From contig JABLXQ010000009.1 of NCBI GenBank assembly GCA_013178375.1, positions 82,347 through 146,346 on the forward strand: a stretch of 64,000 nt of DNA. Reading direction: 5' to 3'. Numbering within the stretch: position 1 is the stretch's first letter; the number at the start of each line of letters is the position of its first letter. The stretch comes from Gammaproteobacteria bacterium (GTDB lineage: Bacteria; Pseudomonadota; Gammaproteobacteria; Pseudomonadales; Ketobacteraceae). The notes beneath the pieces were generated by a model. That model made no database searches. It was not told the DNA's origin and saw only the letters and a program-made list of their open reading frames with translations. Below, piece after piece: positions 31,301-51,522 of the stretch. The position numbers were made by a program, and so were the translations under genes.

Positions 31301-31366
31301 TTGCTGACGCTGATCGTGTTGCCGGTACTGGTGAAACTGTTCAAACCCAAGGCACTGCAAAACTGA
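28301..31366 (+). CDS. Fusion protein: N-terminal ICMT/PEMT-family membrane methyltransferase plus C-terminal MMPL/RND exporter.
   Basis: GGAAGGAG RBS, then GTG at 28301. Residues 1-185 carry 4-5 TM with RFIRHPFYTSF and EERNLSQSSFGAEYRDFITRTGRFFP (ICMT/PEMT signatures RHPxY and EE..L..FG..Y..Y...R.xP). Residues about 190-1021 form two 6-TM bundles with large periplasmic loops, homologous in layout to the 6990..9377 exporter. Confidence 0.75.
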   Translation: MELSAVILLTFNFLYIGATPAFFFRKDGSFNLMWFITGLPLFLWPVSLFGVYWGYLEPNLALDSEMYASMKTLGVLLSCGSIALISLTMGTHRIPLALWHQDNDAPRTIVTWGAYRFIRHPFYTSFIIAHTAALMIAPHWFQLLLLSYQILILNHTAAREERNLSQSSFGAEYRDFITRTGRFFPKPRAAAFMETYLVWVTQYRHLVLGLLAGFTIFFSVFLVNIGINATPYFISPDHPVRVTESEIKSIFTNTEEQAFVALVDEKNGIFTTANLELVQKLTQQLERISFASDSDLERLRSIAGDDAEAQAIVARVAENGIGLDDVEPLRQLAQHGKTAKTLTAQELKKIDDIIVRARPVKRVRSLFTVEDIRVDGDDLAIDSLIERIPSDSAGLQALQQHIMANPLLVGVIVSQDGKATNMQVELNIAEDDSPSMQAVYAAIEKLLAEAGGDAQLHFSGPPMVTAQIAQIIQQDNMLFFPLVSTVICLILFISFRRLQAVVLTMTVCTLSTLWTMGFMAMFGIDVNIVTASLPVFLMTIAVADSIHYLTEYYGLLNTHDRVEAAKVALRHLMKPMFMTSLTDFFGFIALAYTSLVFVREFGIFIAVGAVFAFIISVTLLPAILPLLKQPANASENKQSALMNPVNRGFGKLYLTLGRAPLLVLAATAAVAAFTTYLSSEVRVDNHNIVQFSEDTRIRQDDEILNRHFGGTVPINVWFSAADERRFTQPDVIVAMDQIAQRFEQHEIIGYVGSPSNLVKRIHQLLNDTDYALPADMSPELIAQYFLLYENGNGQEIRDSLDENYQNARLVALSHTDQSSKVRAVLQDVEAYAKTVLPADVKMQVAGFGQIMVTSTDEIVNGQISSLTIATLLIAGVMILLFRSWWTGVLSVIPLALTILINFGTMNGLGLDIDIGTALITGIVFGIGIDYAIHLLSYIKRATGEGKPLAQAIEAAIEHASWPIMVNSVCLALGFCVLVASHYGSTGRLGLLIAGTMIVCALLTLIVLPVLVKLFKPKALQN

Positions 31367-31413
31367 AACAACCACACCCACCCGCGCGACAGCCAACTGC
31401 GCGCGGGCCGGCG

Positions 31414-31421
31414 TGTATAAT
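31414..31421 (+). promoter_or_regulatory. Extended -10 element (TGTATAAT) upstream of the RegB-like kinase gene.
   Basis: TGnTATAAT lies 72 nt upstream of the ATG at 31493 and is preceded by a GC hairpin (31381..31407). No clear -35 element. Confidence 0.3.
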
Positions 31422-31492
31422 GCGGGCAATCCCACCCGCATCGATCCTGTCGGCGCGGACCCGATCTGGCAGGAGACCCCCTGGTCCACCCC

Positions 31493-32815
31493 ATGAAACA
31501 ACCGGTAACCCTCGCGCCCCCGTCCTGGTGGCAGGCTCCCCTGCAACGGGACAGCCTGCGCTACCTCACCTGGTACATGTGCATCCTGCTGGCCGTGATG
31601 CTCACGGCCAGTCTCGCTTTCCACCTGCAGAAAATTGAACTGCCCGCGCGCCTGCACTGGCTGCTGCTGCCGACCCAGACGCTGCTGACCGTCGCCACTT
31701 TTATCGCCTGGCGCCGGCGCGCATCGGTACCGGAGGCGCTTTACCTGCTGTTGCTGTTCTGCTCCATCGGCCTGCTGGGCTGGTTCCTGCACGACGCCGG
31801 TGGCCACACCAATCCGGTGATTTCCCTGCTGCTGGTGCCCCTGGCCATGGGTGCCGCCCTGCTGGGGTGGCAGGCTACGGCACTGATCGCCATCAGCGTG
31901 CTGCTGCTCTACACCGCGCTGACTGAATATTTCATTCCACTTGATATGGGTAGCAATATGGCCGGCCAAGCGCACCACAACCACGCCGGTGCCAGCGACC
32001 ATTTCATGCAGCTGCATTTGTTGGGAATGTGGATCACCTTCGCGGTGTCGGTGCTGCTGATCGTCGGACTGGTGCTGCCGCTGGCGCAGTCCATGCGCCG
32101 CCAGCGCGACCAGATCGCGCGCCAGCAGGAAAAAATCCTGCAGGACGAAAAGCTGATCGCCTTGGCGACTTTCGCCGCCAGCGCCGCGCATCAACTCGGC
32201 ACTCCGCTTTCCACCCTCGCGGTACTCACCGACGATCTGAAAGACGCGCTGGCAGACCGGCCCGACCTGCAGCAGGATCTGCAGCTGATGGCGCAACAGA
32301 TTCACACCTGCAAGGCCACCCTGCACGGCATGATGCGCAAGGCTGATAATTTGCGGAACGACGTGCGCGAACCGGTGGCCATCGACCAGCTCACCCAGCG
32401 CCTGCGCCAGCAGTTCAACCTGCTGCACCCGGCGCGGGAATTGCGCGTGATGGGCCAGCCGCCTGCCTGCACCGTTGTCGGTGACGAAACTCTGGACCAG
32501 GCCCTGCTCAACCTGCTGGATAACGCCGCCCGCGTCAGCGCCACCGATCCTGAACTCGCCTTCGAACAGCAGGGCAACAGCATCTGCCTGCGCATCACCG
32601 ACACCGGCCCGGGCGTGCCCGACGCTGTTCTGCCACAACTGGGGGAAGCCTTCGTCACCTCGCGCCAGGACGGCCTGGGGCTGGGCCTGTTTTTGTCCCA
32701 CGCCACCATCAACCGGCTGGGCGGCACCCTGCGCCTGCTGCCATCCACCCGCCCCGGCGCCAGCGGCACTGTGACCGAAGTGCGCCTGCCACTGGCAGGA
32801 ACGGAAACCCCATGA
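31493..32815 (+). CDS. RegB/PrrB/RoxS-like redox-sensing membrane histidine kinase.
   Basis: Six TM. The intramembrane quinone-site-like heptapeptide is GGHTNPV (RegB GGxxNPF). The H-box is SAAHQLGTPLSTL, with a Cys in IHTCKATL (RegB redox Cys position). The G-box is GLGLGLF. Confidence 0.75.
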   Translation: MKQPVTLAPPSWWQAPLQRDSLRYLTWYMCILLAVMLTASLAFHLQKIELPARLHWLLLPTQTLLTVATFIAWRRRASVPEALYLLLLFCSIGLLGWFLHDAGGHTNPVISLLLVPLAMGAALLGWQATALIAISVLLLYTALTEYFIPLDMGSNMAGQAHHNHAGASDHFMQLHLLGMWITFAVSVLLIVGLVLPLAQSMRRQRDQIARQQEKILQDEKLIALATFAASAAHQLGTPLSTLAVLTDDLKDALADRPDLQQDLQLMAQQIHTCKATLHGMMRKADNLRNDVREPVAIDQLTQRLRQQFNLLHPARELRVMGQPPACTVVGDETLDQALLNLLDNAARVSATDPELAFEQQGNSICLRITDTGPGVPDAVLPQLGEAFVTSRQDGLGLGLFLSHATINRLGGTLRLLPSTRPGASGTVTEVRLPLAGTETP

Positions 32816-33354
32816 CCGCCATCCCCAGCTTGCTGCTGATCGACGACGATTCCCTGTTCCTGCAGACACTGGGCCGCTCCCTGCAACGGCGCGGCACCGA
32901 AGTGGCCACCGCCCGCGACAGTGCCAGTGCCCTGCACACGCTGCAGCACAAACGCTTCGACCTGATCCTGCTGGATCTGAACCTGGACGGCGAGAGCGGC
33001 CTGAAACTGCTGCAGCAGATCCTGACGCTCCAGCCGGACGCCCGGGTAGTCATGCTCACCGCCTACGCCAGCGTCGCCACCGCCGTGGACGCCATCAAGC
33101 GCGGCGCCGAAAACTACCTGTGCAAACCGGTCACCGCCACCGACATCCTGGCCCTGCTGCAGGACGACGCCGACAACACAACCGACAGCAACGCCCTGCA
33201 GGAAAACCCGCTGTCGGTAGACCGGCTGGAATGGGAACACCTGCAACGGGTGCTGCTGGAACACGACGGCAACATCTCCGCCACTGCCCGCGCCCTCAAC
33301 ATGCACCGCCGCACCCTGCAGCGCAAACTGCAGAAACGGCCGGTGAGCAAATAG
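32812..33354 (+). CDS. RegA/ActR/RoxR-like response regulator (receiver plus Fis-type HTH).
   Basis: LLLIDDDSLF ... DLILLDLNL is a receiver domain. The C-terminal GNISATARALNMHRRTLQRKLQK is a Fis-family HTH. It overlaps the kinase gene (ATGA). Confidence 0.8.
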   Translation: MTAIPSLLLIDDDSLFLQTLGRSLQRRGTEVATARDSASALHTLQHKRFDLILLDLNLDGESGLKLLQQILTLQPDARVVMLTAYASVATAVDAIKRGAENYLCKPVTATDILALLQDDADNTTDSNALQENPLSVDRLEWEHLQRVLLEHDGNISATARALNMHRRTLQRKLQKRPVSK

Positions 33355-40168: not shown

Positions 40169-40276
40169 CACCCGGCGATCTCCAGACAGTCAATTGGCTT
40201 GCAAAATTGCCACGCAATAGTCCTATGGTTAGACTACCCGCCACGTCGGATCAGGGAATTGGGGCTGAAACCGGTC

Positions 40277-41482
40277 ATGCTGTCGCGTCATCGTTTGGCG
40301 AACCTGCTGTTCGCACTGTTATCCGTATTGCTTCCTGCCTCACTGGCCTTCGCGGCGGTGAGCGGCGTCACTGTGAGCCCGAAACAGGGCACGCTCGATG
40401 TTGCCCAGGGCGGCTCACTCACGTTGAAATGGGTGGTATCCACCAGCCCGGCCCACGCGGGCGGCGCATTTTCGGCCCAGGGCCTGCTCACTGATCCGGT
40501 CACCGGCGCCATCCTGCACACGGTGGCCACACCGTTCAACCGCACCGAAGGCTCCGGGCCTCTGCATTTCGACGAGGTGCTGGCCCTCACGCCAGCGCAA
40601 CTGCAGGAATGGGAGGCGAAAGGCATTTCGGCCGTGTCCTACCAGCGCGCATTCGGTTCCAGCGCCAGCGATACCGGCAACAAGACCGCCGCCGCCAGCG
40701 CCAACCTGATCATCACCCTGACCGGTGCCGCCGACCCCACCACGCCGCGCACCCCTGCCGCCGGCCTGTTCATCCACAAACTCAACCTGCGCTTTGCCAA
40801 CGCCCGCAACAAGAAGCGTTTTTCCCCCGGCAGTTCCCTGCGCGCCAAGCTGGACCTGCGCTATTCCGGCACCGGCCTGCTGCAGGGCACCTGGCAGATC
40901 GCCAGCGAAGTCGGCACCGGCGCCAAACCGGTGTTCACCACCCTGGCACAGGTGCGCCGGCAGCTGAAACTGGCGCAACGGGAATTTCTGGTGAGCCCGG
41001 AACTGCCCACCCAGGAACCGGGCAATTACCGGCTGCGGTTTTGCGTGCAGCCGCTGATCGTGGTGTCGGACCAGTTGCATATCGATGGGCAATGTCCGGA
41101 ACCGGAACTGATGGCCGAAATCGATTACCGCATCGACGGCAAAGATGCGCCCCGCACCACGGTGGAGATCGAACTGCTCACGGCCCTCTCGATGACGCTG
41201 ACGCCACAGACGCCGCTGAAATGGAACAAGCTGAAAGGCGCGGTGGCGTATCAGGTGCAGATTTTCAAATCCGGCAACGATGATGTGGAAGACGCGGTGG
41301 ACGGTGCAGAATTTGTGGTGCGCATGATCAGCAGCCCTGATCGCACCCAGCTGTATCTGTCGGAACTGGCCCGCCAGCAGCTGCAGCCAGGTCAGCAGTA
41401 CCGCTGGCGCGTCACGGCGCACGATGAAAACGCGCTGCTGATCGGCACCAGCGAATTCGCCGAATTTACCTATTTGCCCTGA
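40277..41482 (+). CDS. Secreted hypothetical protein.
   Basis: MLSRHRLANLLFALLSVLLPASLAFA is a signal peptide, followed by a beta-rich body. Its 3' end overlaps the convergent giant gene by 13 nt. Confidence 0.5.
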   Translation: MLSRHRLANLLFALLSVLLPASLAFAAVSGVTVSPKQGTLDVAQGGSLTLKWVVSTSPAHAGGAFSAQGLLTDPVTGAILHTVATPFNRTEGSGPLHFDEVLALTPAQLQEWEAKGISAVSYQRAFGSSASDTGNKTAAASANLIITLTGAADPTTPRTPAAGLFIHKLNLRFANARNKKRFSPGSSLRAKLDLRYSGTGLLQGTWQIASEVGTGAKPVFTTLAQVRRQLKLAQREFLVSPELPTQEPGNYRLRFCVQPLIVVSDQLHIDGQCPEPELMAEIDYRIDGKDAPRTTVEIELLTALSMTLTPQTPLKWNKLKGAVAYQVQIFKSGNDDVEDAVDGAEFVVRMISSPDRTQLYLSELARQQLQPGQQYRWRVTAHDENALLIGTSEFAEFTYLP

Positions 41483-44400
41483 GGCGGGCTGGTTTTGACC
41501 CGCGCATCCAGCGTGCGCAGCTGATCCAGCACCTGCTGCATCTTGTCGTGGGTGCGCAGGTCCAGTCCCAGTTTGCCATCCATGGTTTTCACCAGCGGGT
41601 AGATGCTGTTTTCCAGCGTGTCGGCCAGCGTTTTCAGCATCAGGTCGATGCCGGGGACAGGCTGGTTGATCACCTCCACTTCACAGCGCATCTGCGCTGC
41701 GGCTTCTGCGAAGGCTTGCAGCGCTTTTTCGATGCGTTTGCTTACCTGCTGCTGGTTCTGCTCCACGCTGTGCACCAACGTTTTCAAATGCTCGTTCTGT
41801 TGCGCAGTGCGCGAGTCGTTCAACGTTGCACTGACCTGGCCAACCGCTTCCCCCAGCGCATGCAGCTGCATCACCACGCGGGTGCCAACATCGGCCTCGT
41901 CGCCACCGGTTTGCTTCAGACGCTGGAATTCCTTTTTGATCGCCTGCCAGCGTTGCTGCTGCGCTTCCTGCATATTGCCACGCAATTCCGCCAGCTTGAG
42001 CAGGTTGGCCTCGGTGCCGGATGTGAGCAGCTGCGCTTCACCCAGATAGTGATCGTCGATCAGGGTGAGCAGCTCCGCGTCCGTCATCACTGCTGAAATC
42101 TTTTCCGCCATCTTGTTCATGTTGCGGTAACTGCCCTGCAGCTTGAACGGCGGCTCGGTGCGGAATTTGTCGTCCTGCGCGGCGGAGGCGATGTACTGCT
42201 GGTTCACTTTCAGCACCACCTGCTGGATGCGGAAAAGTTTCTGTAACGTCTCGATGATCTCGCGGGATTCAGCGGCGGAATAGGGATGTTTCAGCTCCAC
42301 TTCGTTGAATGCGCGACCGCGGGCGGCATCGACAAAGCAGTAGAAATCCGCCATGTCGCGGGTGGCCAGCGGCGCCAGCACCGGATTCGAGGTCATGCTG
42401 TTTTCGATGTAGCTGAGCGCGAAGACTTCCTCCATGCCACCGAGCACGTCACCCAGGTTGTAGATGTCGGCGCGGTTGGCCAGCATGTCGGGAATCTTGA
42501 ACAGCTCGCCGCTTTCGGTATACGGGTTGCCCGCCATGCCGACGCAGAATTTCTTGCCACGCATGTCGTAGGTTTTGGTGACACCTTTCCACACGCCTTC
42601 AATGCGGCGCGTGCCATCGCACAGGGAAATGAATTTCTGCAGGAACTCAGGATTGGTGTGCTGGATGTCATCCAGGTACAGCATCACGTTGTTGCCCATT
42701 TCCAGCGCCAGGTTGAGCTTTTCCAGCTCCTGCCGCGCGGTGGCGTTCGGTGCCTGCTGCGGATCAAGGGAATCCACCTGATGGCCCAGCGACGGGCAGT
42801 TGATCTTCATGAAGATCAGACCGAGACGGTGGGCGACATATTCCATCAGCGTGGTTTTGCCGTAACCCGGCGGCGAGATCAGCATCAGCAGACCCATCAG
42901 ATCGGTGCGCCGGTTCTCGCCCACGGTGCCCATCTGCTTGGCTAGGTTGGCGCCGATGATGGGCAGGTAGGATTCGCTGATCAGCTTGTTGCGCACGAAG
43001 GACGAGAGCGGGCGCGGCTTGAACTGGTCCAGCCGCAGCCGGCGTTTTTCCTGCTCGATGATGCGCTGGCGGGTTTCCAGAAACTGCAGATAGGTCGGTA
43101 CGGTGTGATCGGCATGCTGCTGCAGGCGCAGCAGAAATTCATCCAGCCGGATGGGCAGATTGCCCTGCTGGATAGTGGCGTGGGACGACAATAATTTTTC
43201 CACGCTGAACTGCAGGTTGAGTTCGCGCGGCTGCCAGCGCAGGCGGGTATCCACCAGCAGGCGGGCAGCGGCTTCTTCGGCATAAGGTGTCAAGGTGTTA
43301 TGTGTCGACGCGCTGTCGGCCTGCCTGTGCAGCCACGCCTGCACCCAGCCCAGCACGAAGCGCCAGGCGGCACCGGGCTGTTCCTGCAGATTTTTCACCG
43401 TTTCATCAAAAGTAGCGGCGGCGTTGGCGGTATTGAGCGCCATGCGCAGCTGCTCCACCAGCGTGAGCGCCGCGCGGGTGATCACAAATTCCGCCTGTGG
43501 CCGCGCCAGTTCCCGCAGCAGGTACTGGGCGGCGCGGGCGCTTTGGGCAGAATCCGTTTCGATCTGCTGCTGGTGCAGAAAATCCCGCAGCTGCTGCTGG
43601 ATTTCATTCTGCAACTGCTGCAGCGCGTTGGCGGAACCAAACAGGTTGAGCATGTGCAGCGCCGATTGCGCCCGTGCCGGCCAGATGCCGGTGTGCGCAT
43701 CACGGCAATAGCGGCTCCAGAACAGCGTGGCCAGCGCGCGGGTGGGCGGATCGAAGCGCAACAGGTCGGCCATTTCATACAGCGGCAGCAGCTGGTCCAG
43801 AATCAGCGTGGCGTCATGATCGTGAATGCCCCGTTCATAACCTTCGCGATAGCGCGGTTCGGCATAGCGGCGCACGCAGTTCAACAAACCGTCGGGCTGT
43901 TGCCGTGCCTGCCGCAACTGGTCCAGTGAAAGCTGTTCGGTGCCACTTTCGGCATGGCGCAGCACAGAATAGGCCAGATATTCCGCCCGGCTCACCTGCT
44001 GGTTTTCCGACGGCAGCGACATGGACCAGAACGCCTGCGTGCCGGCGAGCGTTTCCGCATCCAGCGCTTCATAAAAATCCGTGCCGGTGAGATGAAAATA
44101 CAGCGCGCCATCGCGGGGCAACAGAGTCAGATCCAGTTCCTGCTGATTGACGCTGAAACGGTGCAACGGCCCCAACTTCACCACATTGCCGTCGGCTTCG
44201 TAAATATCGGCCTTGTCGCGCAGGCCGCGCACCGACTGATCCTTCAGCGCCTTCAGTCGCGCTTCAATATCATCGGCCTTGACGCTGTCATCCAGTCCGC
44301 GCAGTTGCTGCGCCAGCTGCCGCAGTTTTTCCACCAGCGGATCGGAACTGAAAAACGTATTGTGCTCGTCCTCGTTGCGGAACTTGCCGCTGCGACGCTT

Positions 44401-46770
44401 GATGCCGTCGATGATGCGGTTGGCGGCATCCAGCAGCGTCTGCGCCCGGCGCTGGCGCTCATCCAGCAGCTGCTGCTTGTGGGTTTCGAAACTTTCAAAA
44501 ATTTCCTCGCGCTTGCCTAGGATGTCAGCGAGGAACTCGTCGTGTTCACCGAACTGGCTTTCCAGCTCCTGCAGCTGGGTCATGATGCGCGACAGCTGTT
44601 CGTCGCAGCGCTCCGGTGTGTTCGACAGCGCCAGTCCGTTGGTAACGCTTTGCGCCAGCAACTTGAACTGGGCGGAAAATTGCGCCAGCGCCTCGGCAGA
44701 ACCCAGATTTTTCACCTGGTTCTGCGCCCGCGCCCGCACCTGGTTCAGTTGTGAATACAGCGCGGAAATGGCGTCGATGATACGGGTGCGGGTGTTGGCT
44801 TCGGCCGAGGTGATGCCGCTGATGGTTTCGGTGAGCAGATCCAGGCCCTGACTCAGCTGATCCAGCTTCTGCAACGGCGCTTCCAGTTCGGCGCGAATGG
44901 CAATCGCAGCAATCTGTTTGTCCAGCTCACCCAGATCGCGGTACAGCGGCTTCAGCGCTTCCTCTTTTGCCAGAAACTCCACCGTGCGCTGCGACAGCTG
45001 CAGCCGCGCCTTGTCCAGCTGCTGATCCAGTTCCGTAATTCTGTTCTTGTCGATATAGCGGTATTCACCGATGGTCAGCAGATGGCCGCGCATCTTGCGA
45101 ATGTCCGCCAGACCCTGCACGAACGGTTGTGGCGTGGTCCAGCTGTCGGGCTGGATCTGTTTCAGCAGGGCGCGGGTTTGTGCGTCGGCTTTATCCAGCG
45201 CCTCGCCGGAACTGCGGCGGATGGCCGCCACCTTTTCATATTCATCCAGGATCAGCTCGCCAGTTTCGACGATCTGGTGCAGCAGTGCAGCAGTCTCCTG
45301 CATCTCCGTCGCGCCGATCCAGTGATACTGATCGAACAGGCGCCCCGCGTATTTGCACAGCTCGTGATAATGCGTGGCCTGGGCATCGGGTTTGCGAACC
45401 AGCTGGCACACACCAAACAGATCGGAAATACCCCGCACCAGATCCGCGTTACCGATGCGGCCGAAAAAAGTCCGCGACTGCTGTGTCTGGCTGGCGTGCA
45501 CGTCGGAATAGAATGGCGTCTGCCACAGCTGCATCGGATGCACGCGGGTAGGTTCGCTTTCCGCCTGGAACATCAGCATGCGGCCGTCTTCAAAACGGGC
45601 ACAGCCGTGGGCATACAGCGGCGTGCGCAACTGCCGCTCGATCAGATTGTACGGGTACAGCGCCACCAGCCCGTTCACTGGCTCGTACAGCAGATACAGC
45701 ACATCCTCGCCGTTGGGGGATTTGATGGCGCGCTTGAAACGCAGGCCGGCATTGGGCTCATCGAACGTCTTGTAATCGCCGGTCTGCAGATAAAAGCCGC
45801 CTGGAAACAGAATGCCGTGATTGTCAGGCAGCTGCACGCAACTATCACCGATGGCGTCGATCCGCACCACGGATTCGTTGAGGCGGTTGAACACCAGATA
45901 ACGCCACTGCGGTTCCTGGTAGGGGCGGATTTTCAGCAGGATCAGCTGGCCCAGCTCCGCGAAAAAAAATTCCGCGTCGTCGAGGGACTGGTTGGGATCG
46001 GCCACCGGATCGGAATACACGCCCTTGCCGGTGGCGGTGTTGTTTTCCACCTTGATGGTGAGATCGCCGCCAATGGTGTCGACGAAAATCGTGTCGAGAA
46101 TATTCAGGTGGGGATGGCGGCCTTCCACGATCAGCTCCCGCGCCACCGGCCGCCATTCGAAATCCTGCGGCGATGGCAGCTGGATGTCGCGTTCGCCACG
46201 ATTGTCGATGTATTCAATACGCTGGCCATCGGCTGAAACGGACCAGCGGAACACGCGCTGGTCCGCCGCCCGCTCGCCGATCTGGAAACTGGCCAGCAGT
46301 TTGCCGTCCCACACCACCAGCAGGGTGAGCACGGTATTTTTGTAATAGGTGTACAGCTCGTTGAAATCGGACTGGAAGCGGGCGTCCGCCAGAAAGGTAT
46401 TCTCGATCGGAACGGCATCCATTTCCGGATTGCCGTCCCGCTCTACCAGTTTGTAGACGGAGAACACGTCGGCCACCTGGGTGGATTTTTTCAGGCCGAG
46501 AAACACGTTGTAGCCGAACAGCAGGCTGTCGCCCACGCGTACGATATCGCGCGCCACACAATTGTTTTCGGTGCGCACGCGGGTGCGGCCAATCACCTGC
46601 ATTTCGGTGGAGCCGAATTCCTCCAGCCGCTGTTTGTTAAGACCAGTGGCCAGCGCCTCCAGGCGATTGCCCTGCTCCAGCAGACGCTTGCGGATAACCT
46701 CATACGCCGAACCCTGGGTGACCGCCTGTTCCACCTGCTGCTCGCCGACAGCCGCCGGTGCCTTGTCCAT
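41470..46770 (-). CDS. Giant (about 1767 aa) protein with a C-proximal AAA+ ATPase domain and a coiled-coil tail.
   Basis: Walker A LMLISPPGYGKTTLMEY, Walker B MLYLDDIQHTNPE and sensor-1-like FCVGMAGNPYTE lie near residues 1250-1400. About 1200 aa N-terminal of them carry no motif I recognise. The C-terminal 300 aa are Q/E/L-rich coiled coil. Its start is either the ATG at 46770 or a TTG at 46797. Confidence 0.75.
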   Translation of the reverse strand: MDKAPAAVGEQQVEQAVTQGSAYEVIRKRLLEQGNRLEALATGLNKQRLEEFGSTEMQVIGRTRVRTENNCVARDIVRVGDSLLFGYNVFLGLKKSTQVADVFSVYKLVERDGNPEMDAVPIENTFLADARFQSDFNELYTYYKNTVLTLLVVWDGKLLASFQIGERAADQRVFRWSVSADGQRIEYIDNRGERDIQLPSPQDFEWRPVARELIVEGRHPHLNILDTIFVDTIGGDLTIKVENNTATGKGVYSDPVADPNQSLDDAEFFFAELGQLILLKIRPYQEPQWRYLVFNRLNESVVRIDAIGDSCVQLPDNHGILFPGGFYLQTGDYKTFDEPNAGLRFKRAIKSPNGEDVLYLLYEPVNGLVALYPYNLIERQLRTPLYAHGCARFEDGRMLMFQAESEPTRVHPMQLWQTPFYSDVHASQTQQSRTFFGRIGNADLVRGISDLFGVCQLVRKPDAQATHYHELCKYAGRLFDQYHWIGATEMQETAALLHQIVETGELILDEYEKVAAIRRSSGEALDKADAQTRALLKQIQPDSWTTPQPFVQGLADIRKMRGHLLTIGEYRYIDKNRITELDQQLDKARLQLSQRTVEFLAKEEALKPLYRDLGELDKQIAAIAIRAELEAPLQKLDQLSQGLDLLTETISGITSAEANTRTRIIDAISALYSQLNQVRARAQNQVKNLGSAEALAQFSAQFKLLAQSVTNGLALSNTPERCDEQLSRIMTQLQELESQFGEHDEFLADILGKREEIFESFETHKQQLLDERQRRAQTLLDAANRIIDGIKRRSGKFRNEDEHNTFFSSDPLVEKLRQLAQQLRGLDDSVKADDIEARLKALKDQSVRGLRDKADIYEADGNVVKLGPLHRFSVNQQELDLTLLPRDGALYFHLTGTDFYEALDAETLAGTQAFWSMSLPSENQQVSRAEYLAYSVLRHAESGTEQLSLDQLRQARQQPDGLLNCVRRYAEPRYREGYERGIHDHDATLILDQLLPLYEMADLLRFDPPTRALATLFWSRYCRDAHTGIWPARAQSALHMLNLFGSANALQQLQNEIQQQLRDFLHQQQIETDSAQSARAAQYLLRELARPQAEFVITRAALTLVEQLRMALNTANAAATFDETVKNLQEQPGAAWRFVLGWVQAWLHRQADSASTHNTLTPYAEEAAARLLVDTRLRWQPRELNLQFSVEKLLSSHATIQQGNLPIRLDEFLLRLQQHADHTVPTYLQFLETRQRIIEQEKRRLRLDQFKPRPLSSFVRNKLISESYLPIIGANLAKQMGTVGENRRTDLMGLLMLISPPGYGKTTLMEYVAHRLGLIFMKINCPSLGHQVDSLDPQQAPNATARQELEKLNLALEMGNNVMLYLDDIQHTNPEFLQKFISLCDGTRRIEGVWKGVTKTYDMRGKKFCVGMAGNPYTESGELFKIPDMLANRADIYNLGDVLGGMEEVFALSYIENSMTSNPVLAPLATRDMADFYCFVDAARGRAFNEVELKHPYSAAESREIIETLQKLFRIQQVVLKVNQQYIASAAQDDKFRTEPPFKLQGSYRNMNKMAEKISAVMTDAELLTLIDDHYLGEAQLLTSGTEANLLKLAELRGNMQEAQQQRWQAIKKEFQRLKQTGGDEADVGTRVVMQLHALGEAVGQVSATLNDSRTAQQNEHLKTLVHSVEQNQQQVSKRIEKALQAFAEAAAQMRCEVEVINQPVPGIDLMLKTLADTLENSIYPLVKTMDGKLGLDLRTHDKMQQVLDQLRTLDARVKTSPPQGK

Positions 46771-46904
46771 TACCGCCACGCGATTCTTCCTCTGCAAACG
46801 ATTCTTGCTCTGACAGCGTCGTGGAAATATGCCGGTGTCCGGCTAACGCGATCGTTCGCGCCGCCAGACCTTCCGGTGTCATGTTACGGGCTCATGCTGC
46901 AGGG

Positions 46905-48995
46905 TCAGGCCTGCTGTTCTTCCGCCGGTTTGACCTCGACAGGTTTGGTCTCGGCAGCACTGCCCAGATTCAAAAGCCGGTTGAACGCCTGATTGATCAT
47001 CGGGCTTTTCGCGGCAATGCCATTCACCGCGTTGCCGATGGACAGCGCCTTGGCGAAGTTCGCGAAGTAATCGCCTTCGCCACCGACGATTTCGATCTTC
47101 GCTTTTTGCAGCGCGGCGCCCAGCACTTCGGCCTGCTCTTTGGCGATGTCCTTGTTGGCGGCAATCGTCGCCATGACTTCCTCGAACGCCAGCTCCAGCC
47201 GCATGCGCAATTCCTCGAACTCGCGCGCTGCCGGGCTCATGTTGTTCATGGCGCTGAATTTCTCGGTCAGGCCATCGGCTTCGGCGCGGCCCTTCTCGCG
47301 AATCACGTCCGCCGACGCAATGCCTTTCTCCCGTTCCGCCAGCGCCACTGCCTTGCCAATGGCTTCGTCGCCCGATGCCTGCGCCGCCAGCTTCTCCTTC
47401 AGCGCGCGGGCTTCCGCCAGACCGATCTGCTCGTCGCCACGGGCCTTCGCCGACAGTTTTTCTTCCAGCACCTTGGCATCTGCCAGGCCCTGTTTCTCGT
47501 TGGCTTCCGCCTGCGCCTCGATCACGCGCGCCTTTGCCAGACCCAATGCCTGGTCTGCATTGGCTTTCGCCACGCCTTCTTTTTCCAGCGCTGCCGCCTG
47601 GGCTTCCTTCACCCGCGCGTCCGCCAGGCCCGGTGCCGCCTGCTCCGCCTGCATGCCTTCGGCCCGCTTGATCTGGGCCTCGGCCTGCTTCGCCGCCGCT
47701 TCCAATTCCGCCTGGGCGATGGTGTTGATTTCCTTCGCCTTGTGAATGGCCTTGCGCTCTTCCGCCTCGGCTTTCTTCACCTGCTTCACCAAATCCTCTT
47801 CAGCGATGGCCTGGGCATCCAGAATCTTCGCCTGCTTGGAACGCTCGGCTTCGGAAATGGTGCGCACATCCTTGATCCGCTCTTCTTCCTCGGCCACTTT
47901 CTTGTCTACCGCGATGCGCTCGGAAATGGTGTTGGCGATGATCTTACGCTCCTCTTCCAGCGCTTTTTCCTTGTCGATGGTCTGCAGCTCCACCTCGCGT
48001 TCGCGATTGACGATTTCCAGCTGGCGCGCCTTCTCCACTTTTTCGTGCTCAATCGCCACCACACGCTCGCGGTTTTTCTCGGCGATCTCGATCTGGCGCT
48101 GTTTATTTTGTTCAGACACCGCCAGCGCTTCCTCGGTTTCGATGCGGGCCTGCTCCGCCTTGCGCCGCTCCTCTTCTTTCACCTTGCTGGTTTCCGCTTC
48201 TTCGCGGGCACGAATCGATTCCACCTCGCGCTTCTGCCGCGCCTCGGCATCGGCCTGCTGTTTTTCCAGTTCCAGCATGGCTTCGCGGGTCGACACGTTC
48301 TTGCGGGTGATTTCCAGTTCCTCGTCGCGCTCCAGCCGGTTGGTTTCGATATTCTGCTGGGCGGTAATCTGGGTGATCTTGCGGATGCCTTCGGAATCCA
48401 GAATGTTGTTGGGATCGAGGGCGGATTTCGGGGTCTGCTCCAGATAATCGATGGCCACATCTTCCAGCACATAGCCGTTGAGATCGTCGCCAATCACTTC
48501 AATGATTTTGTCGCGGAACTGGATACGGTTTTCAAACAGCTCCAGGAATTCCATTTTCTTGCCGACGGTTTTTAATGCCTCGGAGAATTTCGCGTTGAAC
48601 AGCTCACTCACCGCATCCTTGCTCGACGCCCGCTCCACGCCCACCGCCTTCGCCACCTTCAGCACATCCTCGGTGGTTTCATTCACGCGCAGATAGAACG
48701 CCACCGTGATGTCCGCCCGCAGATTATCCTTGCAGATCAGACCGTCCTTGCCGCTGCGATCGATCTCCAGGGTGATGACGGAAATCTTCATCACTTCCTT
48801 CTTGAAAATCACAGGCCAGACGATAGCGCCGGTAAAACTCACCTTCGGCACCGATGCCAGCGTGTTGACGATCAGCGCCTGCCCCTGTTCCACTTTGATA
48901 TAGAACGCCTTCACTGCCAGCAGCAACAACACCAGCACCGCAAAAGAACCGCCCACCACGGTGATCCAGAAAAAAATCCAGCCCGAATCGAACAT
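46905..48995 (-). CDS. yqiK: Flotillin / SPFH (band 7) family protein, YqiK-like.
   Basis: AGGAGAG RBS. N-terminal TM IFFWITVVGGSFAVLVLLLLAV, then an SPFH domain, then about 350 aa of EA/AK-rich coiled coil. Confidence 0.85.
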   Translation of the reverse strand: MFDSGWIFFWITVVGGSFAVLVLLLLAVKAFYIKVEQGQALIVNTLASVPKVSFTGAIVWPVIFKKEVMKISVITLEIDRSGKDGLICKDNLRADITVAFYLRVNETTEDVLKVAKAVGVERASSKDAVSELFNAKFSEALKTVGKKMEFLELFENRIQFRDKIIEVIGDDLNGYVLEDVAIDYLEQTPKSALDPNNILDSEGIRKITQITAQQNIETNRLERDEELEITRKNVSTREAMLELEKQQADAEARQKREVESIRAREEAETSKVKEEERRKAEQARIETEEALAVSEQNKQRQIEIAEKNRERVVAIEHEKVEKARQLEIVNREREVELQTIDKEKALEEERKIIANTISERIAVDKKVAEEEERIKDVRTISEAERSKQAKILDAQAIAEEDLVKQVKKAEAEERKAIHKAKEINTIAQAELEAAAKQAEAQIKRAEGMQAEQAAPGLADARVKEAQAAALEKEGVAKANADQALGLAKARVIEAQAEANEKQGLADAKVLEEKLSAKARGDEQIGLAEARALKEKLAAQASGDEAIGKAVALAEREKGIASADVIREKGRAEADGLTEKFSAMNNMSPAAREFEELRMRLELAFEEVMATIAANKDIAKEQAEVLGAALQKAKIEIVGGEGDYFANFAKALSIGNAVNGIAAKSPMINQAFNRLLNLGSAAETKPVEVKPAEEQQA

Positions 48996-49012
48996 TGTGT
49001 TTCTCTCCTAAT

Positions 49013-49075
49013 GAAAGCTCTGCCTATTAAAAGCTCTGCCTGTTACAAGACCAGCCTGTTATAAAGCCTGTTCAG
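49013..49075 (-). repeat. Short direct repeats in the yqiJ-flotillin intercistronic spacer.
   Basis: AAAGCTCTGCCT(A/G)TTA appears twice (49013..49028 and 49029..49044), followed by CAGCCTGTTA and AAGCCTGTTCA. The GCCTGTT core occurs four times in 60 nt. Confidence 0.6.
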
Positions 49076-49683
49076 CTCTTGAATTCATGTTCCGGCACGA
49101 CCCAGAACAGGTTCGTGTCCTTGCGATGCTCGATCAGCACCACCTTGTCGCCCCGCTGCAAGCCCTTGCCGGCTTCGGCGCGCACTTTCAGGATCAGCTC
49201 GGCGCCATCGATCACCGTGGTCGCCTCGCCAAACGTTTCGTCCACCCGGCTGGAGCGCACGGTGCAGAGCGCACCAATCAGCACCTTGTCCGGCGCCGAC
49301 GCGTTCAACGCCCGGAACAGGGGGCGCAGCGGTTTCACCACCTGCGCGCTCACCAGTACAGACACCGCCAGCGACACCGGAATGGCCAGCGTGCCGGTCA
49401 CATAGTTGAGCCAGTTGCCCGGCTCGCCCACGAACAGCAGCGCCACGATCAGGTAGCAGGTGGCCCAGGAAAACAGCGCCACCAGCCCCAGTACCATCGA
49501 CAGCGGAACCCCCTTCAGGCCCAGCGTGGTCATCAGGCCCGACAGCGCTTCGAATTCGAAATCAACGTCGTCGAATCCCGCCAGCCCCACTGCCGCCAGC
49601 AACAGGTAGAGGAACGCAAAAGCGCCAAAAATCGTAAAGATAACCGTGGGATAACTCGAAATGTTCTGCAGGAACGCTTCCAT
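49072..49683 (-). CDS. yqiJ: YqiJ/NfeD-like membrane protein (flotillin partner).
   Basis: N-terminal TM bundle, then a C-terminal soluble beta domain (VVLIEHRKDTNLFWVVP). Conserved yqiJ-yqiK order. Confidence 0.7.
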   Translation of the reverse strand: MEAFLQNISSYPTVIFTIFGAFAFLYLLLAAVGLAGFDDVDFEFEALSGLMTTLGLKGVPLSMVLGLVALFSWATCYLIVALLFVGEPGNWLNYVTGTLAIPVSLAVSVLVSAQVVKPLRPLFRALNASAPDKVLIGALCTVRSSRVDETFGEATTVIDGAELILKVRAEAGKGLQRGDKVVLIEHRKDTNLFWVVPEHEFKS

Positions 49684-49698
49684 ACACAGCCCCCGGCC

Positions 49699-49916
49699 AT
49701 TGACATATCATGTCAATCTAGTAACAACGACATATTATGTCAATGGCAAAAATCCATACTTGTTGTAGTGGACAGCCCGGCGCTATTTTGTATTGAATGC
49801 CGGCTACCGTTTCAGTCGTGCAGGCACTATAGCCAAGCCATACGGACATAACAAAAAATTGTTTGACATATTATGTCGTGCGGCCTAGCCTTTCCCGTAC
49901 GACATAATATGTCAAC
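49699..49916. promoter_or_regulatory. Four palindromic operator-like sites (consensus TTGACAT-N3-ATGTCAA) in the divergent promoter region.
   Basis: Site 1 at 49699..49717 is ATTGACAT-atc-ATGTCAAT (8-3-8, perfect). Site 2 at 49726..49744 is aacGACAT-att-ATGTCAAT. Site 3 at 49862..49880 is TTTGACAT-att-ATGTCgtg. Site 4 at 49898..49916 is tacGACAT-aat-ATGTCAAc. One pair flanks each divergent promoter. Confidence 0.7.
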
Positions 49917-49943: not shown

Positions 49944-50351
49944 ATGCACCGATTGCAGGAACTGACCTACACCCTGAGCGACCTCAACTATGAAGGCCAC
50001 ACCTTCAACTGCCTGCCCATTGGCGGCGCGCAGAATGTGTTGCAGATACTGGTGTCGGATCTGGACGAAATGCCAATCTATGTCACTGTCACCGACACCC
50101 AGATGCTGTGTATCACCTATCTGTGCCGGCGTGACGAGATCCGCACCGACAAGCGTGATGAACTCAACCGGTCCATGCTGGAAATGAACGTTGCCGTGCC
50201 ACTCAGCTCGTTCGCGCTGATCGAGGACTACTATGTAATATTCGGCGCACTTTCCACCACCAGCAGCATCAATGATATCTGCCGGGAACTGGTTACCCTG
50301 GCCGCCAACGCCTACGACGCGCTGGAAGCCATCGAAGAATTTCTGGTTTGA
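49944..50351 (+). CDS. yjfI: YjfI-like protein (DUF2170).
   Basis: 135 aa, acidic, soluble. It sits immediately upstream of a PspA/IM30-family gene as in the enterobacterial yjfIJ pair. Assignment is by context and size. Confidence 0.45.
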   Translation: MHRLQELTYTLSDLNYEGHTFNCLPIGGAQNVLQILVSDLDEMPIYVTVTDTQMLCITYLCRRDEIRTDKRDELNRSMLEMNVAVPLSSFALIEDYYVIFGALSTTSSINDICRELVTLAANAYDALEAIEEFLV

Positions 50352-50384
50352 ACCTCATTTGAGCGACGTAACGGGAGACACCCC

Positions 50385-51080
50385 ATGAGCAGCGTATTCG
50401 ACAAACTCTGGACCGCCCTGCGCGGCGGCGCACGGGAAATCGGTGACGCCATCGTCGATGCCAACGGCATCCGCATTTTCGAGCAGGAAATCAAGGACGC
50501 CACCGACAACATCGCCACCGCGAAAAGAAGCCTCACCGAAGTGATGGCCAGAAAGATGCAGGCTGTGCGCAAGGTGGCGGAACTGGGCGACGCCATTACC
50601 CAGAATGAACGCTTTGCCACCCAGGCCCTTGAGCAGAACAACGAGGCACTGGCACTGGATGTGGCCGGCAAGATCGCAGGACTGGAGAACGACCGCAACG
50701 AGCAGGCTGCCATCGTCACCCGGCTGGATCACCAGATTGAACAGCTTAAGGCGCACATCAAGAAAGCCGAGAAGCTGATCGCCGATCACGAGCGCGAACT
50801 GGCCATTGTGCGCACCACAGAAAGCGTGCAGAAGGCCACCGAACAAGTGGTGGAAAACGTGGCCGCCAACAACTCCTCCCTGAATTCCGCCCGCGATTCC
50901 CTGGAGCGCATCAAGAAGCGGCAGGAACTGAAACAGGACCAGATGGCCGCCGGCGAACTGCTGGATAGTGAATTGGGCGACCAGGGCCTGGACGCCAAGC
51001 TGGAGGCCGCCGGCATCAAGGGAACAAAAGCCGATGCGGCTGCCATTCTGGCACGGCTGAAGGCGGCCAAACCTTCCTGA
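50385..51080 (+). CDS. yjfJ: PspA/IM30 family protein (YjfJ-like).
   Basis: 231 aa, all coiled coil. MSSVFDKLWTALRGGAREIGDAIVDANGIRIFEQEIKDA is typical of the N-terminus of PspA/YjfJ/Vipp1 (ESCRT-III superfamily). Confidence 0.7.
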   Translation: MSSVFDKLWTALRGGAREIGDAIVDANGIRIFEQEIKDATDNIATAKRSLTEVMARKMQAVRKVAELGDAITQNERFATQALEQNNEALALDVAGKIAGLENDRNEQAAIVTRLDHQIEQLKAHIKKAEKLIADHERELAIVRTTESVQKATEQVVENVAANNSSLNSARDSLERIKKRQELKQDQMAAGELLDSELGDQGLDAKLEAAGIKGTKADAAAILARLKAAKPS

Positions 51081-51207
51081 TATAATGCGGGTCTTATAAT
51101 ATGGCCCTGCAGCGGCGCGCAGCAGCCCGGGTGGCTCTCCGCGCCGTGACGTCATTTATTGCCACTACTGATTACCGGAAACCCAGGCGGAACCACAGGC
51201 TGAACCG

Positions 51208-51522
51208 ATGAAGAATTCCCGCTGGCAACAAGAACAGAACGCCATCAAGGCCGTGCAGGTGGCGTTCGACATTTCCGCCGAGGCCCAGAAGGTCATCAAG
51301 CAGGAAGCCCTGTCCAACAACCTCAATCCACCGGACCAGATCCGCAAGATTCTCGGCCTGTCCTACAACAAGAAACCGGTACGTCCGCGCCTGACCGTAA
51401 CGCTGAAAGACGAGGATTTCGAAGTGCTGGCGGCCCGCTACGGGCTTGACCCGAAGGACCAGGCCGCCATCAAGGAAAAAGTGGTGGAAGAGCTGGTGGG
51501 CTTCGCCCGCAAACCGCGCTGA
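51208..51522 (+). CDS. Small protein with two tandem ribbon-helix-helix-like units (putative DNA-binding).
   Basis: Unit 1: KAVQVAF (beta), DISAEAQKVIKQEAL, PPDQIRKILG. Unit 2: PRLTVTL (beta), KDEDFEVLAARYG, DQAAIKEKVVEEL. Each matches the RHH beta-alpha-alpha pattern. Confidence 0.4.
   Translation: MKNSRWQQEQNAIKAVQVAFDISAEAQKVIKQEALSNNLNPPDQIRKILGLSYNKKPVRPRLTVTLKDEDFEVLAARYGLDPKDQAAIKEKVVEELVGFARKPR

Follow-up and report, generated by a model that had tools for sequence, protein, structure and literature searches.

A giant AAA+ ATPase encoded with flotillin-like, YqiJ-like and PspA-family genes in a gammaproteobacterium: a candidate envelope-stress and membrane-remodelling module

Introduction

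Bacterial gene neighbourhoods in which PspA is accompanied by a flotillin and a large AAA+ ATPase have been described before. In its passages on the subject, the paper of Ravi et al. 2024 (mSystems, PMC11237479) describes a neighbourhood composed of a CesT/Tir-PspA pair, a band-7/flotillin protein, a YqiJ/YuaF protein and a β-propeller AAA+ ATPase, and the same passages report abbreviated forms without PspA as widespread. Here, we analyse a locus in a 64,000-nucleotide stretch of DNA from a gammaproteobacterium of the Ketobacteraceae (assembly GCA_013178375.1, contig JABLXQ010000009.1, positions 82,347 to 146,346; in the following simply called the window), in which genes for a YqiJ-like protein, a flotillin-like protein and a giant AAA+ ATPase follow one another. 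The original prediction, made from the DNA sequence, had presented the giant protein as a third partner not known beside NfeD-flotillin pairs. This novelty does not hold, as the neighbourhood is found in the passages of PMC11237479 and corresponds to bacABCDEF of Pseudomonas aeruginosa (PMC10948618).

In the case of P. aeruginosa, the genes bacABCDEF (PA3732-PA3727; Mace et al. 2008, PMC2587700; PMC10948618, 2024) are co-transcribed according to reverse-transcription PCR, a sigma-54 promoter has been proposed for them, and a bacA mutant accumulates BacB to BacF 6- to 13-fold (PMC10948618). Mutants of bac are defective in biofilm formation, rhamnolipid production and virulence (PMC10948618, PMC2587700). 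A crystal structure exists for BacA, and DUF2170 is placed in the CesT/Tir chaperone superfamily (passages of PMC11237479; PMC10948618). PA3728 is listed as an ‘ATPase’ recurrently mutated in cystic-fibrosis isolates. In the sister species P. paraeruginosa (locus L042 of our sample), the order is DUF2170 (206 amino acids), PspA (231), YqiJ-like protein (213), flotillin (688), giant ATPase (1746) and PLDc_2 protein (235). BacE thus corresponds to the giant ATPase and BacF to the PLD protein, an assignment of BacE that is based on the gene order of the sister species and not on the sequence of strain PA14.

Two further observations frame the question of what such a gene set could do. According to a 2025 review, bacteria appear to lack a Vps4-like ATPase (PMC7619361). 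In Bacillus subtilis, an SPFH protein links PspA to the membrane (cited in PMC10948618 and PMC7619361).

Results

Gene organisation and relation to described systems

As predicted, three open reading frames lie co-directionally on the minus strand, in the order YqiJ-like gene, flotillin-like gene and giant ATPase gene. The first (49072..49683) encodes a BacC-like membrane protein of the YqiJ family with 203 amino acids, the NfeD-like partner of the flotillin. The second (46905..48995) encodes a flotillin-like SPFH protein of 696 amino acids similar to YqiK and BacD. The third (41470..46770) encodes a giant soluble AAA+ ATPase similar to BacE/PA3728. Immediately upstream, a divergent operon on the plus strand (49944-51522) carries genes for a DUF2170/YjfI-family protein, a PspA homologue and a small protein that we call orf104.

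The giant reading frame is open up to a TTG at 46797 (41470..46797). The ATG at 46770 is the start that matches the homologue alignments, and it yields 1766 amino acids plus a stop codon; thus the predicted coordinates stand and the predicted length of 1767 residues is corrected. The YqiJ-flotillin spacer is 76 bp long, as had been given. From the ATG start, the flotillin-giant spacer measures 134 bp, and the 107 bp of the original prediction apply only from the upstream TTG. A scan of the minus strand found no terminator-like site in either spacer, and the flotillin gene is preceded by a strong Shine-Dalgarno sequence, AGGAGA. As a separate observation, the YqiJ-flotillin spacer (49000-49071, minus strand) contains short tandem motifs, namely AACAGGC three times and AGGCAGAGCTTT twice.

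The locus belongs to the published PspA-linked flotillin/YqiJ/AAA+ class, that is to say the Bac system, in a variant layout. All four principal features of the class are present: a CesT/Tir (DUF2170) gene together with a pspA gene of the yjfJ type, the two being mutually adjacent and divergent from the other three genes; an SPFH/flotillin protein with a transmembrane helix; a three-transmembrane YqiJ/YuaF-type protein; and an AAA+ domain fused to an N-terminal β-propeller and a coiled coil, as seen by Pfam, AlphaFold2 and Foldseek. The fifth, a PLD/HKD hydrolase, is ascribed to the class ‘in some Proteobacteria’ and was not found in the window by tblastn. As this feature is optional, its lack is compatible with membership.

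In detail, the flotillin-like protein consists of an N-terminal transmembrane helix (residues 7-25), an SPFH domain, a long coiled coil rich in Glu, Ala and Lys, and a C-terminal flotillin-like region. Band_7/SPFH was detected by Pfam at residues 34-182 of the N-terminal fragment (E 1.1e-9). Scanned at full length, neither this protein nor the YqiJ-like one gave any Pfam match, even at E 10, and in the case of the flotillin-like protein this is because the bias of the coiled coil hides the SPFH domain. Homology to Escherichia coli YqiK is clear (BLASTP E 6e-42), and NCBIfam FloT matches weakly at residues 505-590.

The YqiJ-like protein shows three hydrophobic segments followed by a C-terminal, β-rich soluble domain. 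A profile of 27 orthologues aligned with E. coli YqiJ over 142 columns (hhalign probability 94.6%, E 6.7e-8), the C-terminal domains of the two proteins align with each other, and an SPFH gene adjoins. The Pfam families NfeD and YqiJ_OB gave no match in this protein; Pfam on eight of its orthologues gave one sub-threshold YqiJ_N match and nothing else, and no relative of the profile was found in the PDB. Pfam YqiJ_N is present in the counterpart from Planctomycetota.

Regarding bac, orthologues occur in the same order in P. paraeruginosa, with identities to the window proteins of 32% for BacA, 41% for BacB, 38% for BacC, 63% for BacD and 56% for BacE. The layouts differ: bac is a single sigma-54-dependent operon ending in the PLD-like bacF, whereas the window has two divergent units of the sigma-70 type, no bacF and the additional orf104. 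Compared with the class of PMC11237479, the CesT/Tir-PspA dyad of the window is divergent instead of co-directional, as in 4 of 65 loci, and a PLD/HKD gene is missing; orf104 and the palindromic operators described below are additional, and they are absent from the passages of that paper on the neighbourhood. The flotillin and its YqiJ-family partner are also homologous to E. coli yqiJ-yqiK and B. subtilis yuaF-floT, which are likewise adjacent and co-directional. In E. coli K-12, however, no giant ATPase follows yqiK, where sibD/ibsD is found instead, and yjfIJ, its DUF2170-PspA pair, is at a different genomic site.

Conservation of the gene neighbourhood

To describe the neighbourhood across genomes, 80 gammaproteobacterial loci were collected, of which the 68 whose upstream flank reached 3.2 kb or more were scored for upstream linkage. 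In 66 of these 68 loci, the giant gene is directly preceded by the flotillin and YqiJ-like genes, which point in the same direction. In one exception (L034) they follow after a gap of 930 bp, and L057 alone lacks them. The linkage of the three genes is far beyond chance, and the question raised with the original prediction, whether orthologues of the giant protein would turn out to be unlinked to SPFH/NfeD genes in other genomes, was answered in favour of linkage. Together with the occurrence in other phyla, this bears out the proposal that the three genes form a conserved unit. The DUF2170-PspA dyad adjoins them in 55 of 65 loci (co-directional in 51, divergent as in the window in 4).

Similar arrangements could be detected in distant lineages, at 30-35% identity and with flotillin matches of E 3e-70 or better, in Flavobacterium, Sphingobacterium, Planctomycetota and an unassigned metagenomic lineage. 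The order in Flavobacterium and Sphingobacterium is CesT_Tir_1, PspA, a protein of about 220 amino acids, a flotillin of about 690 amino acids and the giant ATPase; a contig from Planctomycetota shows PspA-PspA-YqiJ_N-flotillin-giant. The metagenomic lineage and Betaproteobacteria likewise keep the arrangement.

Several additions to the cluster were observed. In Betaproteobacteria, a zinc-ribbon protein of 176 amino acids is encoded between flotillin and giant (L087 9093-9623, L089 6070-6606). Other lineage-specific inserts in or beside the cluster are an SMC_N-like protein of 586 amino acids from Flavobacterium, TelA, which lies downstream and belongs to one metagenomic lineage, and a TPM_phosphatase protein from Sphingobacterium (coordinates listed: L083 5228-6988, L086 11989-13227, L084 11874-13391).

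Downstream of the giant gene, a rhomboid gene was found in 42 and a PLD-like gene in 32 of the 80 loci. The rhomboid intramembrane protease gene stands directly 3' of the giant gene (L001, L005, L008 and about 40 others), in L001 even overlapping its stop codon, and the PLD-like gene is often the next one after it. The passages of PMC11237479 on this neighbourhood do not include the rhomboid link. At the window locus, neither a rhomboid nor a PLD gene lies downstream of the giant gene, and tblastn with two PLD orthologues found no PLD gene in the entire 64-kb window.

These downstream genes bear on the suggestion of the original prediction that a membrane-associated defence-type system is possible. 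As an anti-phage or abortive-infection system, flotillin, YqiJ and PspA would sense membrane damage caused by phage and the ATPase, with PLD in some genomes, would be the effector. Defence systems often contain large ATPases with coiled coils as well as partners of the PLD family, the giant gene is followed by PLD-like and rhomboid genes as just described, and the Psp response was originally discovered through the stress that a phage secretin causes. However, searches with PADLOC-DB 2.0 gave no match for the flotillin-like or YqiJ-like protein, and for the giant protein only a weak one to LmuB, an SMC-like coiled coil (residues 509-845, E 7e-5, 19 bits). No integrase, mobile or defence gene was seen among the flanking genes checked, flanks which were not scanned with PADLOC; those genes are of the housekeeping kind (rRNA methyltransferase, NUDIX, PtsP-like, CorA, hemerythrin). 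Moreover, the synteny is stable and looks vertical through Pseudomonas, Cellvibrionales and Oceanospirillales and extends to Bacteroidota and Planctomycetota, whereas a patchy distribution is usual for defence islands. PLD is missing from the window locus, and the published phenotypes concern biofilm, rhamnolipid and virulence rather than phage resistance. Overall, with nothing but the LmuB match on its side in these searches and stable synteny across phyla against it, a defence function found no support and is very unlikely.

Domain architecture of the giant ATPase

About 1200 N-terminal residues of the giant protein had been left unassigned in the original prediction. This region could now be largely described. 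From the N- to the C-terminus, the protein consists of a helix, a β-propeller, a coiled-coil or helical region, a single AAA+ module, a conserved helical domain and a C-terminal coiled-coil tail. The DUF3686 domain, a predicted β-propeller, covers residues 37-483 (45322..46662, minus strand; Pfam E 2.2e-194), and DUF7902 covers residues 604-687 (44710..44961, minus strand; Pfam E 3.8e-21) within the helical/coiled-coil region of residues ~500-1200. No hydrophobic segment reaches the threshold for a transmembrane helix, and the protein is thus predicted to be soluble.

To obtain more insight on the fold, AlphaFold2 models were built for two parts of the protein. Residues 1-520 gave a mean predicted local distance difference test score (pLDDT) of 81.6, with an N-terminal helix, an all-β body that occupies nearly everything between residues 58 and 417, and C-terminal helices. 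All top Foldseek matches of this model in the PDB are β-propellers (Sec12, WD40, Kelch, LGI1 EPTP, sialidases), at probabilities of ~1.0 and yet low template modelling scores (TM-scores) of ~0.24.

The AAA+ core lies at residues ~1290-1440 (42451..42903, minus strand). It contains Walker A PPGYGKT (1300-1306), Walker B LYLDD (1364-1368), the sensor-1 residue N1415, a predicted β-hairpin (~1389-1402) ahead of the sensor-1 strand and a candidate Arg finger, R1433. The motifs PPGYGKT, LYLDD and AGNP had been read correctly and are invariant across the aligned homologues; residues 1301-1400 are the best conserved stretch of the protein, with a mean identity of 91%. Pfam AAA/AAA_5 match at about residues 1295-1418, the AAA match alone spanning just 1296-1370, and AAA_5 reaches 27.6 bits (cut-off 22, E 3.3e-6). 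The Walker B motif of AAA+ proteins usually ends in Asp-Glu. Here it has the form hhhhDD (DNA 42667-42681), an Asp-Asp that is likewise invariant in the aligned homologues and that, from its sequence, may indicate slow or regulated ATP hydrolysis.

The model of residues 1215-1640 (pLDDT 73.8, predicted TM-score (pTM) 0.48) comprises the AAA+ core and shows strands at model positions 175-180 and 183-188 that form a β-hairpin between Walker B and sensor 1. Its best fold matches are Skd3/ClpB, NorQ/CbbQ, MCM, RuvB, ClpA/X and Lon, with Vps4 only at rank 41. NorQ and CbbQ occupy ranks 5-50, not above the ClpB-type matches, and pLDDT is low where a helix-2 insert would lie. Based on the modelled hairpin and these fold matches, we tentatively place the module in the pre-sensor-1-hairpin superclade and not in the classical AAA clade. 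Of the two assignments to be compared according to the original prediction, classical AAA is therefore disfavoured, at the level allowed by a moderate model, and MoxR/AAA_5 retains the 27.6-bit profile match without NorQ/CbbQ standing out in the fold search.

The protein belongs to a large family. Homologues form more than 6500 clusters, mostly named ‘DNA repair ATPase’; for the DUF3686 domain alone, 747 clusters were found at 50% identity, and most full-length members have 1600-1900 amino acids. The name, used by NCBI, UniRef and Pfam, would imply that the ATPase acts on DNA and that its flotillin neighbourhood is incidental. In favour of such a role, the P-loop weakly resembles that of RuvB, a protein that also turned up in the fold search, and recJ lies a few genes downstream in some pseudomonads, as does mutL in Sphingobacterium. 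Yet the RuvB similarity is confined to ~45 residues at Walker A (E 0.004-0.1), with 16 bits far short of the family cut-off of 282, and Pfam scans of the giant protein found no nuclease, helicase or DNA-binding domain. Sequence searches of the PDB with the protein or its family profile gave only RuvB and p97 at the level of the P-loop, and designed coiled coils. In addition, the invariant neighbours are membrane proteins in at least four phyla, and the P. aeruginosa gene is co-transcribed and co-regulated with those of PspA and flotillin. Since no paper on DUF3686 was found, the name seems to be an annotation without validation, and we consider a function in DNA repair extremely improbable.

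The divergent PspA operon and shared operators

The divergent operon on the plus strand starts with the gene of a BacA-like protein of the DUF2170/YjfI family (49944..50351, 135 amino acids; Pfam DUF2170 E 1.1e-38), followed by that of the PspA homologue (50385..51080; Pfam PspA_IM30 E 3.1e-37) and by orf104 (51208..51522), a protein of 104 amino acids with two strand-helix-helix-like repeats. The original prediction had assumed a single promoter region upstream of the YqiJ-like gene. Instead, the 260-bp intergenic region is a bidirectional control region common to both operons.

Four GACATATNATGTC palindromes were identified there, two per promoter, each pair lying over a TTGACA-N17 promoter. 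For the YqiJ-flotillin-ATPase operon (49700..49743, minus strand), the promoter is sigma-70-like, TTGACA-17-TAGATT (49743 to 49715), with one palindrome over the -35 element and one over -10/+1. For the DUF2170-PspA-orf104 operon (49863..49915, plus strand), TTGACA stands at 49863 with a weak -10 element, TAGCCT, and is covered by the second pair. In the whole window, GACATATNATGTC gave 7 strand-matches, all within these 260 bp, against 0.12 expected. A sigma-54 promoter like that of bacA is not claimed here, as just two bare GG-N10-GC occurrences were seen in the intergenic region, neither of them near the consensus.

The same module could be detected in other genomes. Upstream of DUF2170 in Duganella (L087) and in a member of Burkholderiales (L089), TTGACA-N17-TATACT carries palindromes over -35 and +1. 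Where the six genes are fused into one operon (L063, L078, L087, L089), a single operator pair is found, and the divergent layout has two pairs. The layout of the window recurs in Marinobacter fuscus, Ketobacter and Hahella. Because the same promoter-operator module stands at both window operons, and a single one before the fused operon, the two operons probably constitute one regulon.

The palindrome follows orf104. It is present in all ten clusters of the orf104 type examined, with orf104 seen in nine and cut off at a contig end in one, and it is absent from all loci without orf104. Besides the window, clusters of this type are L002, L003, L006, L016, L052, L063, L078 and L087-L089, from Gamma- and Betaproteobacteria. 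The orf104 family comprises 139 homologue clusters, all named ‘hypothetical’ and devoid of a Pfam domain, and orf104 was found only within this cluster type, in six fetched gammaproteobacterial loci as well as in Marinobacter, Duganella and a metagenome-assembled genome of Burkholderiales. For orf104 itself, searches of Pfam, NCBIfam and the PDB gave no match. Its repeats resemble ribbon-helix-helix proteins no more than weakly (hhalign with CopG, probability 43%), so that such a fold is a hypothesis; orf104 is a candidate DNA-binding protein and the likely repressor of both promoters. Orf104 and the paired palindromes appear to be an undescribed regulatory module, the sole element of the locus for which no description was found.

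A further observation concerns the DUF2170-PspA dyad, which falls into two sub-types. In the orf104-associated sub-type, identities to the window proteins are 53-99% for DUF2170 and 45-97% for PspA; in the bac sub-type they are just 27-36% and 25-44%, respectively. The neighbouring giant and flotillin genes, in contrast, are equally similar to those of the window in both sub-types. This split suggests that the dyad has either been replaced or diverged faster.

End of the operon and other reading frames

After the giant gene, a convergent plus-strand open reading frame of 427 amino acids (40199-41482) overlaps its stop codon by 13 nt; Pfam gives only a weak Ig-like match for its product. A minus-strand reading frame of 335 amino acids (40415-41422) was weighed as a possible fourth gene of the operon and rejected, as the overlapping plus-strand frame is better conserved (93% versus 78% in L002, 55% versus 37% in L076). 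Because of this better conservation and of the overlap with the stop codon, the giant gene was taken as the end of the operon. Another large protein of the window, encoded by a reading frame of 1234 amino acids at 29165-32869 on the minus strand, had no Pfam match at E 0.001.

Discussion

Starting from gene content, conservation across phyla, domain architecture and an operator motif common to both promoters, our preferred reading is that the locus encodes a six-gene, two-operon module for envelope stress and membrane remodelling, in which the ATPase would remodel PspA polymers or flotillin assemblies. We assign it a probability of about 60%. A role in membrane microdomains or remodelling, as the original prediction had it, is the best-supported one because the unit is linked to a gene of the PspA/ESCRT-III family in most genomes. 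The remodelling reading is also supported by a soluble giant protein standing beside flotillin-like and YqiJ-like proteins with transmembrane segments, and by a fold that is nearest to Skd3/ClpB, ClpA/X, Lon and NorQ.

Mechanistically, the SPFH protein could assemble with its NfeD-like partner, YqiJ, into an oligomeric platform on the inner membrane, on the side facing the cytoplasm. There, on stressed or curved membrane, PspA would polymerise, with the DUF2170 chaperone keeping it in check. The soluble giant ATPase, probably a hexamer, would be recruited by its β-propeller and coiled-coil arm and would use ATP to remodel or disassemble PspA filaments, the flotillin assembly or both; alternatively, it might pull out proteins trapped in these polymers. 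It could thereby act as a stand-in for Vps4 or for a disaggregase of the ClpB type. In this lineage, a repressor, probably orf104, would occupy the palindrome pairs at both sigma-70-type promoters, which would bring the two operons under common control.

Several observations weigh against this reading. First, 10 of 65 loci have the YqiJ-flotillin-giant unit with no PspA nearby, so PspA need not be an obligatory substrate. Second, at the would-be pore-loop position the ATPase has an invariant LGH and no aromatic-hydrophobic-Gly motif; with this loop and the Asp-Asp Walker B, threading of polypeptides and fast ATP hydrolysis are uncertain. Third, the clade assignment stays tentative because the ATPase model is moderate (pTM 0.48) and its fold matches have TM-scores of ~0.25. 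Finally, no biochemistry on any orthologue of the giant ATPase was found in the searchable literature, and it is by co-occurrence only that orf104 is put forward as the operator-binding protein.

The loci without PspA lead to the main competing explanation. Here, the flotillin/YqiJ platform would confine the ATPase, as HflK/C does with FtsH, and damaged membrane proteins, not PspA or flotillin polymers, would be what the ATPase extracts or unfolds. The rhomboid protease and the PLD-type lipid hydrolase would work alongside it where they are encoded, and the whole would be a quality-control station for membrane proteins and lipids. Precedents for SPFH scaffolds that organise AAA+ machines are known, in bacteria HflK/C-FtsH and in mitochondria SLP2-PARL-YME1L, the latter with the same make-up of SPFH protein, rhomboid and AAA+ protein. 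In line with this, a rhomboid gene follows directly in 42 loci and a PLD gene in 32, and unfoldases and disaggregases come out best in the fold search. However, the giant protein has neither a protease domain nor a transmembrane anchor, it lacks a canonical pore-loop motif, and the window locus is without rhomboid and PLD. Moreover, linkage to PspA is the majority state and extends across phyla. Such a station is possible, and we lean against it.

Returning to the remodelling reading, the comparison with Vps4/CdvC-ESCRT-III, ClpB/Skd3 and HflK/C-FtsH is one of functional analogy only, that of an AAA+ ring tied to a PspA polymer, to an SPFH scaffold or to both. There are also differences: the giant ATPase appears to lie outside the classical AAA clade, given its predicted pre-sensor-1 hairpin and the low rank of Vps4 among the fold matches; MIT and protease domains are both missing, and its Walker B ends in Asp-Asp. 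It is also three to four times larger than the members of this group. The most specific form of the reading would make the DUF3686 ATPase a bacterial functional counterpart of Vps4, non-homologous and derived from the pre-sensor-1-hairpin superclade, which disassembles or reshapes PspA polymers on flotillin/YqiJ platforms while membranes are repaired, with DUF2170 as a PspA holdase and orf104 as a new small repressor that sets the level of both operons in this lineage. Taken in all its parts, this proposal is speculative and unlikely.

To the published picture, the present analysis adds the divergent PspA operon at this locus, the module of operators and orf104, a tentative AAA+ clade and a quantified synteny. 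The annotation ‘DNA repair ATPase’ is misleading and should be revised. The locus bears on how bacterial ESCRT-III-like polymers such as PspA and Vipp1 are dismantled and on the role of bacterial flotillin assemblies. In the conserved cluster, PspA and its chaperone are brought together, probably in one regulon, with a flotillin, the NfeD-like partner of that flotillin and an AAA+ motor of very large size. The cluster is also present in P. aeruginosa, in an operon that affects biofilm and virulence, and the system is amenable to genetic work.

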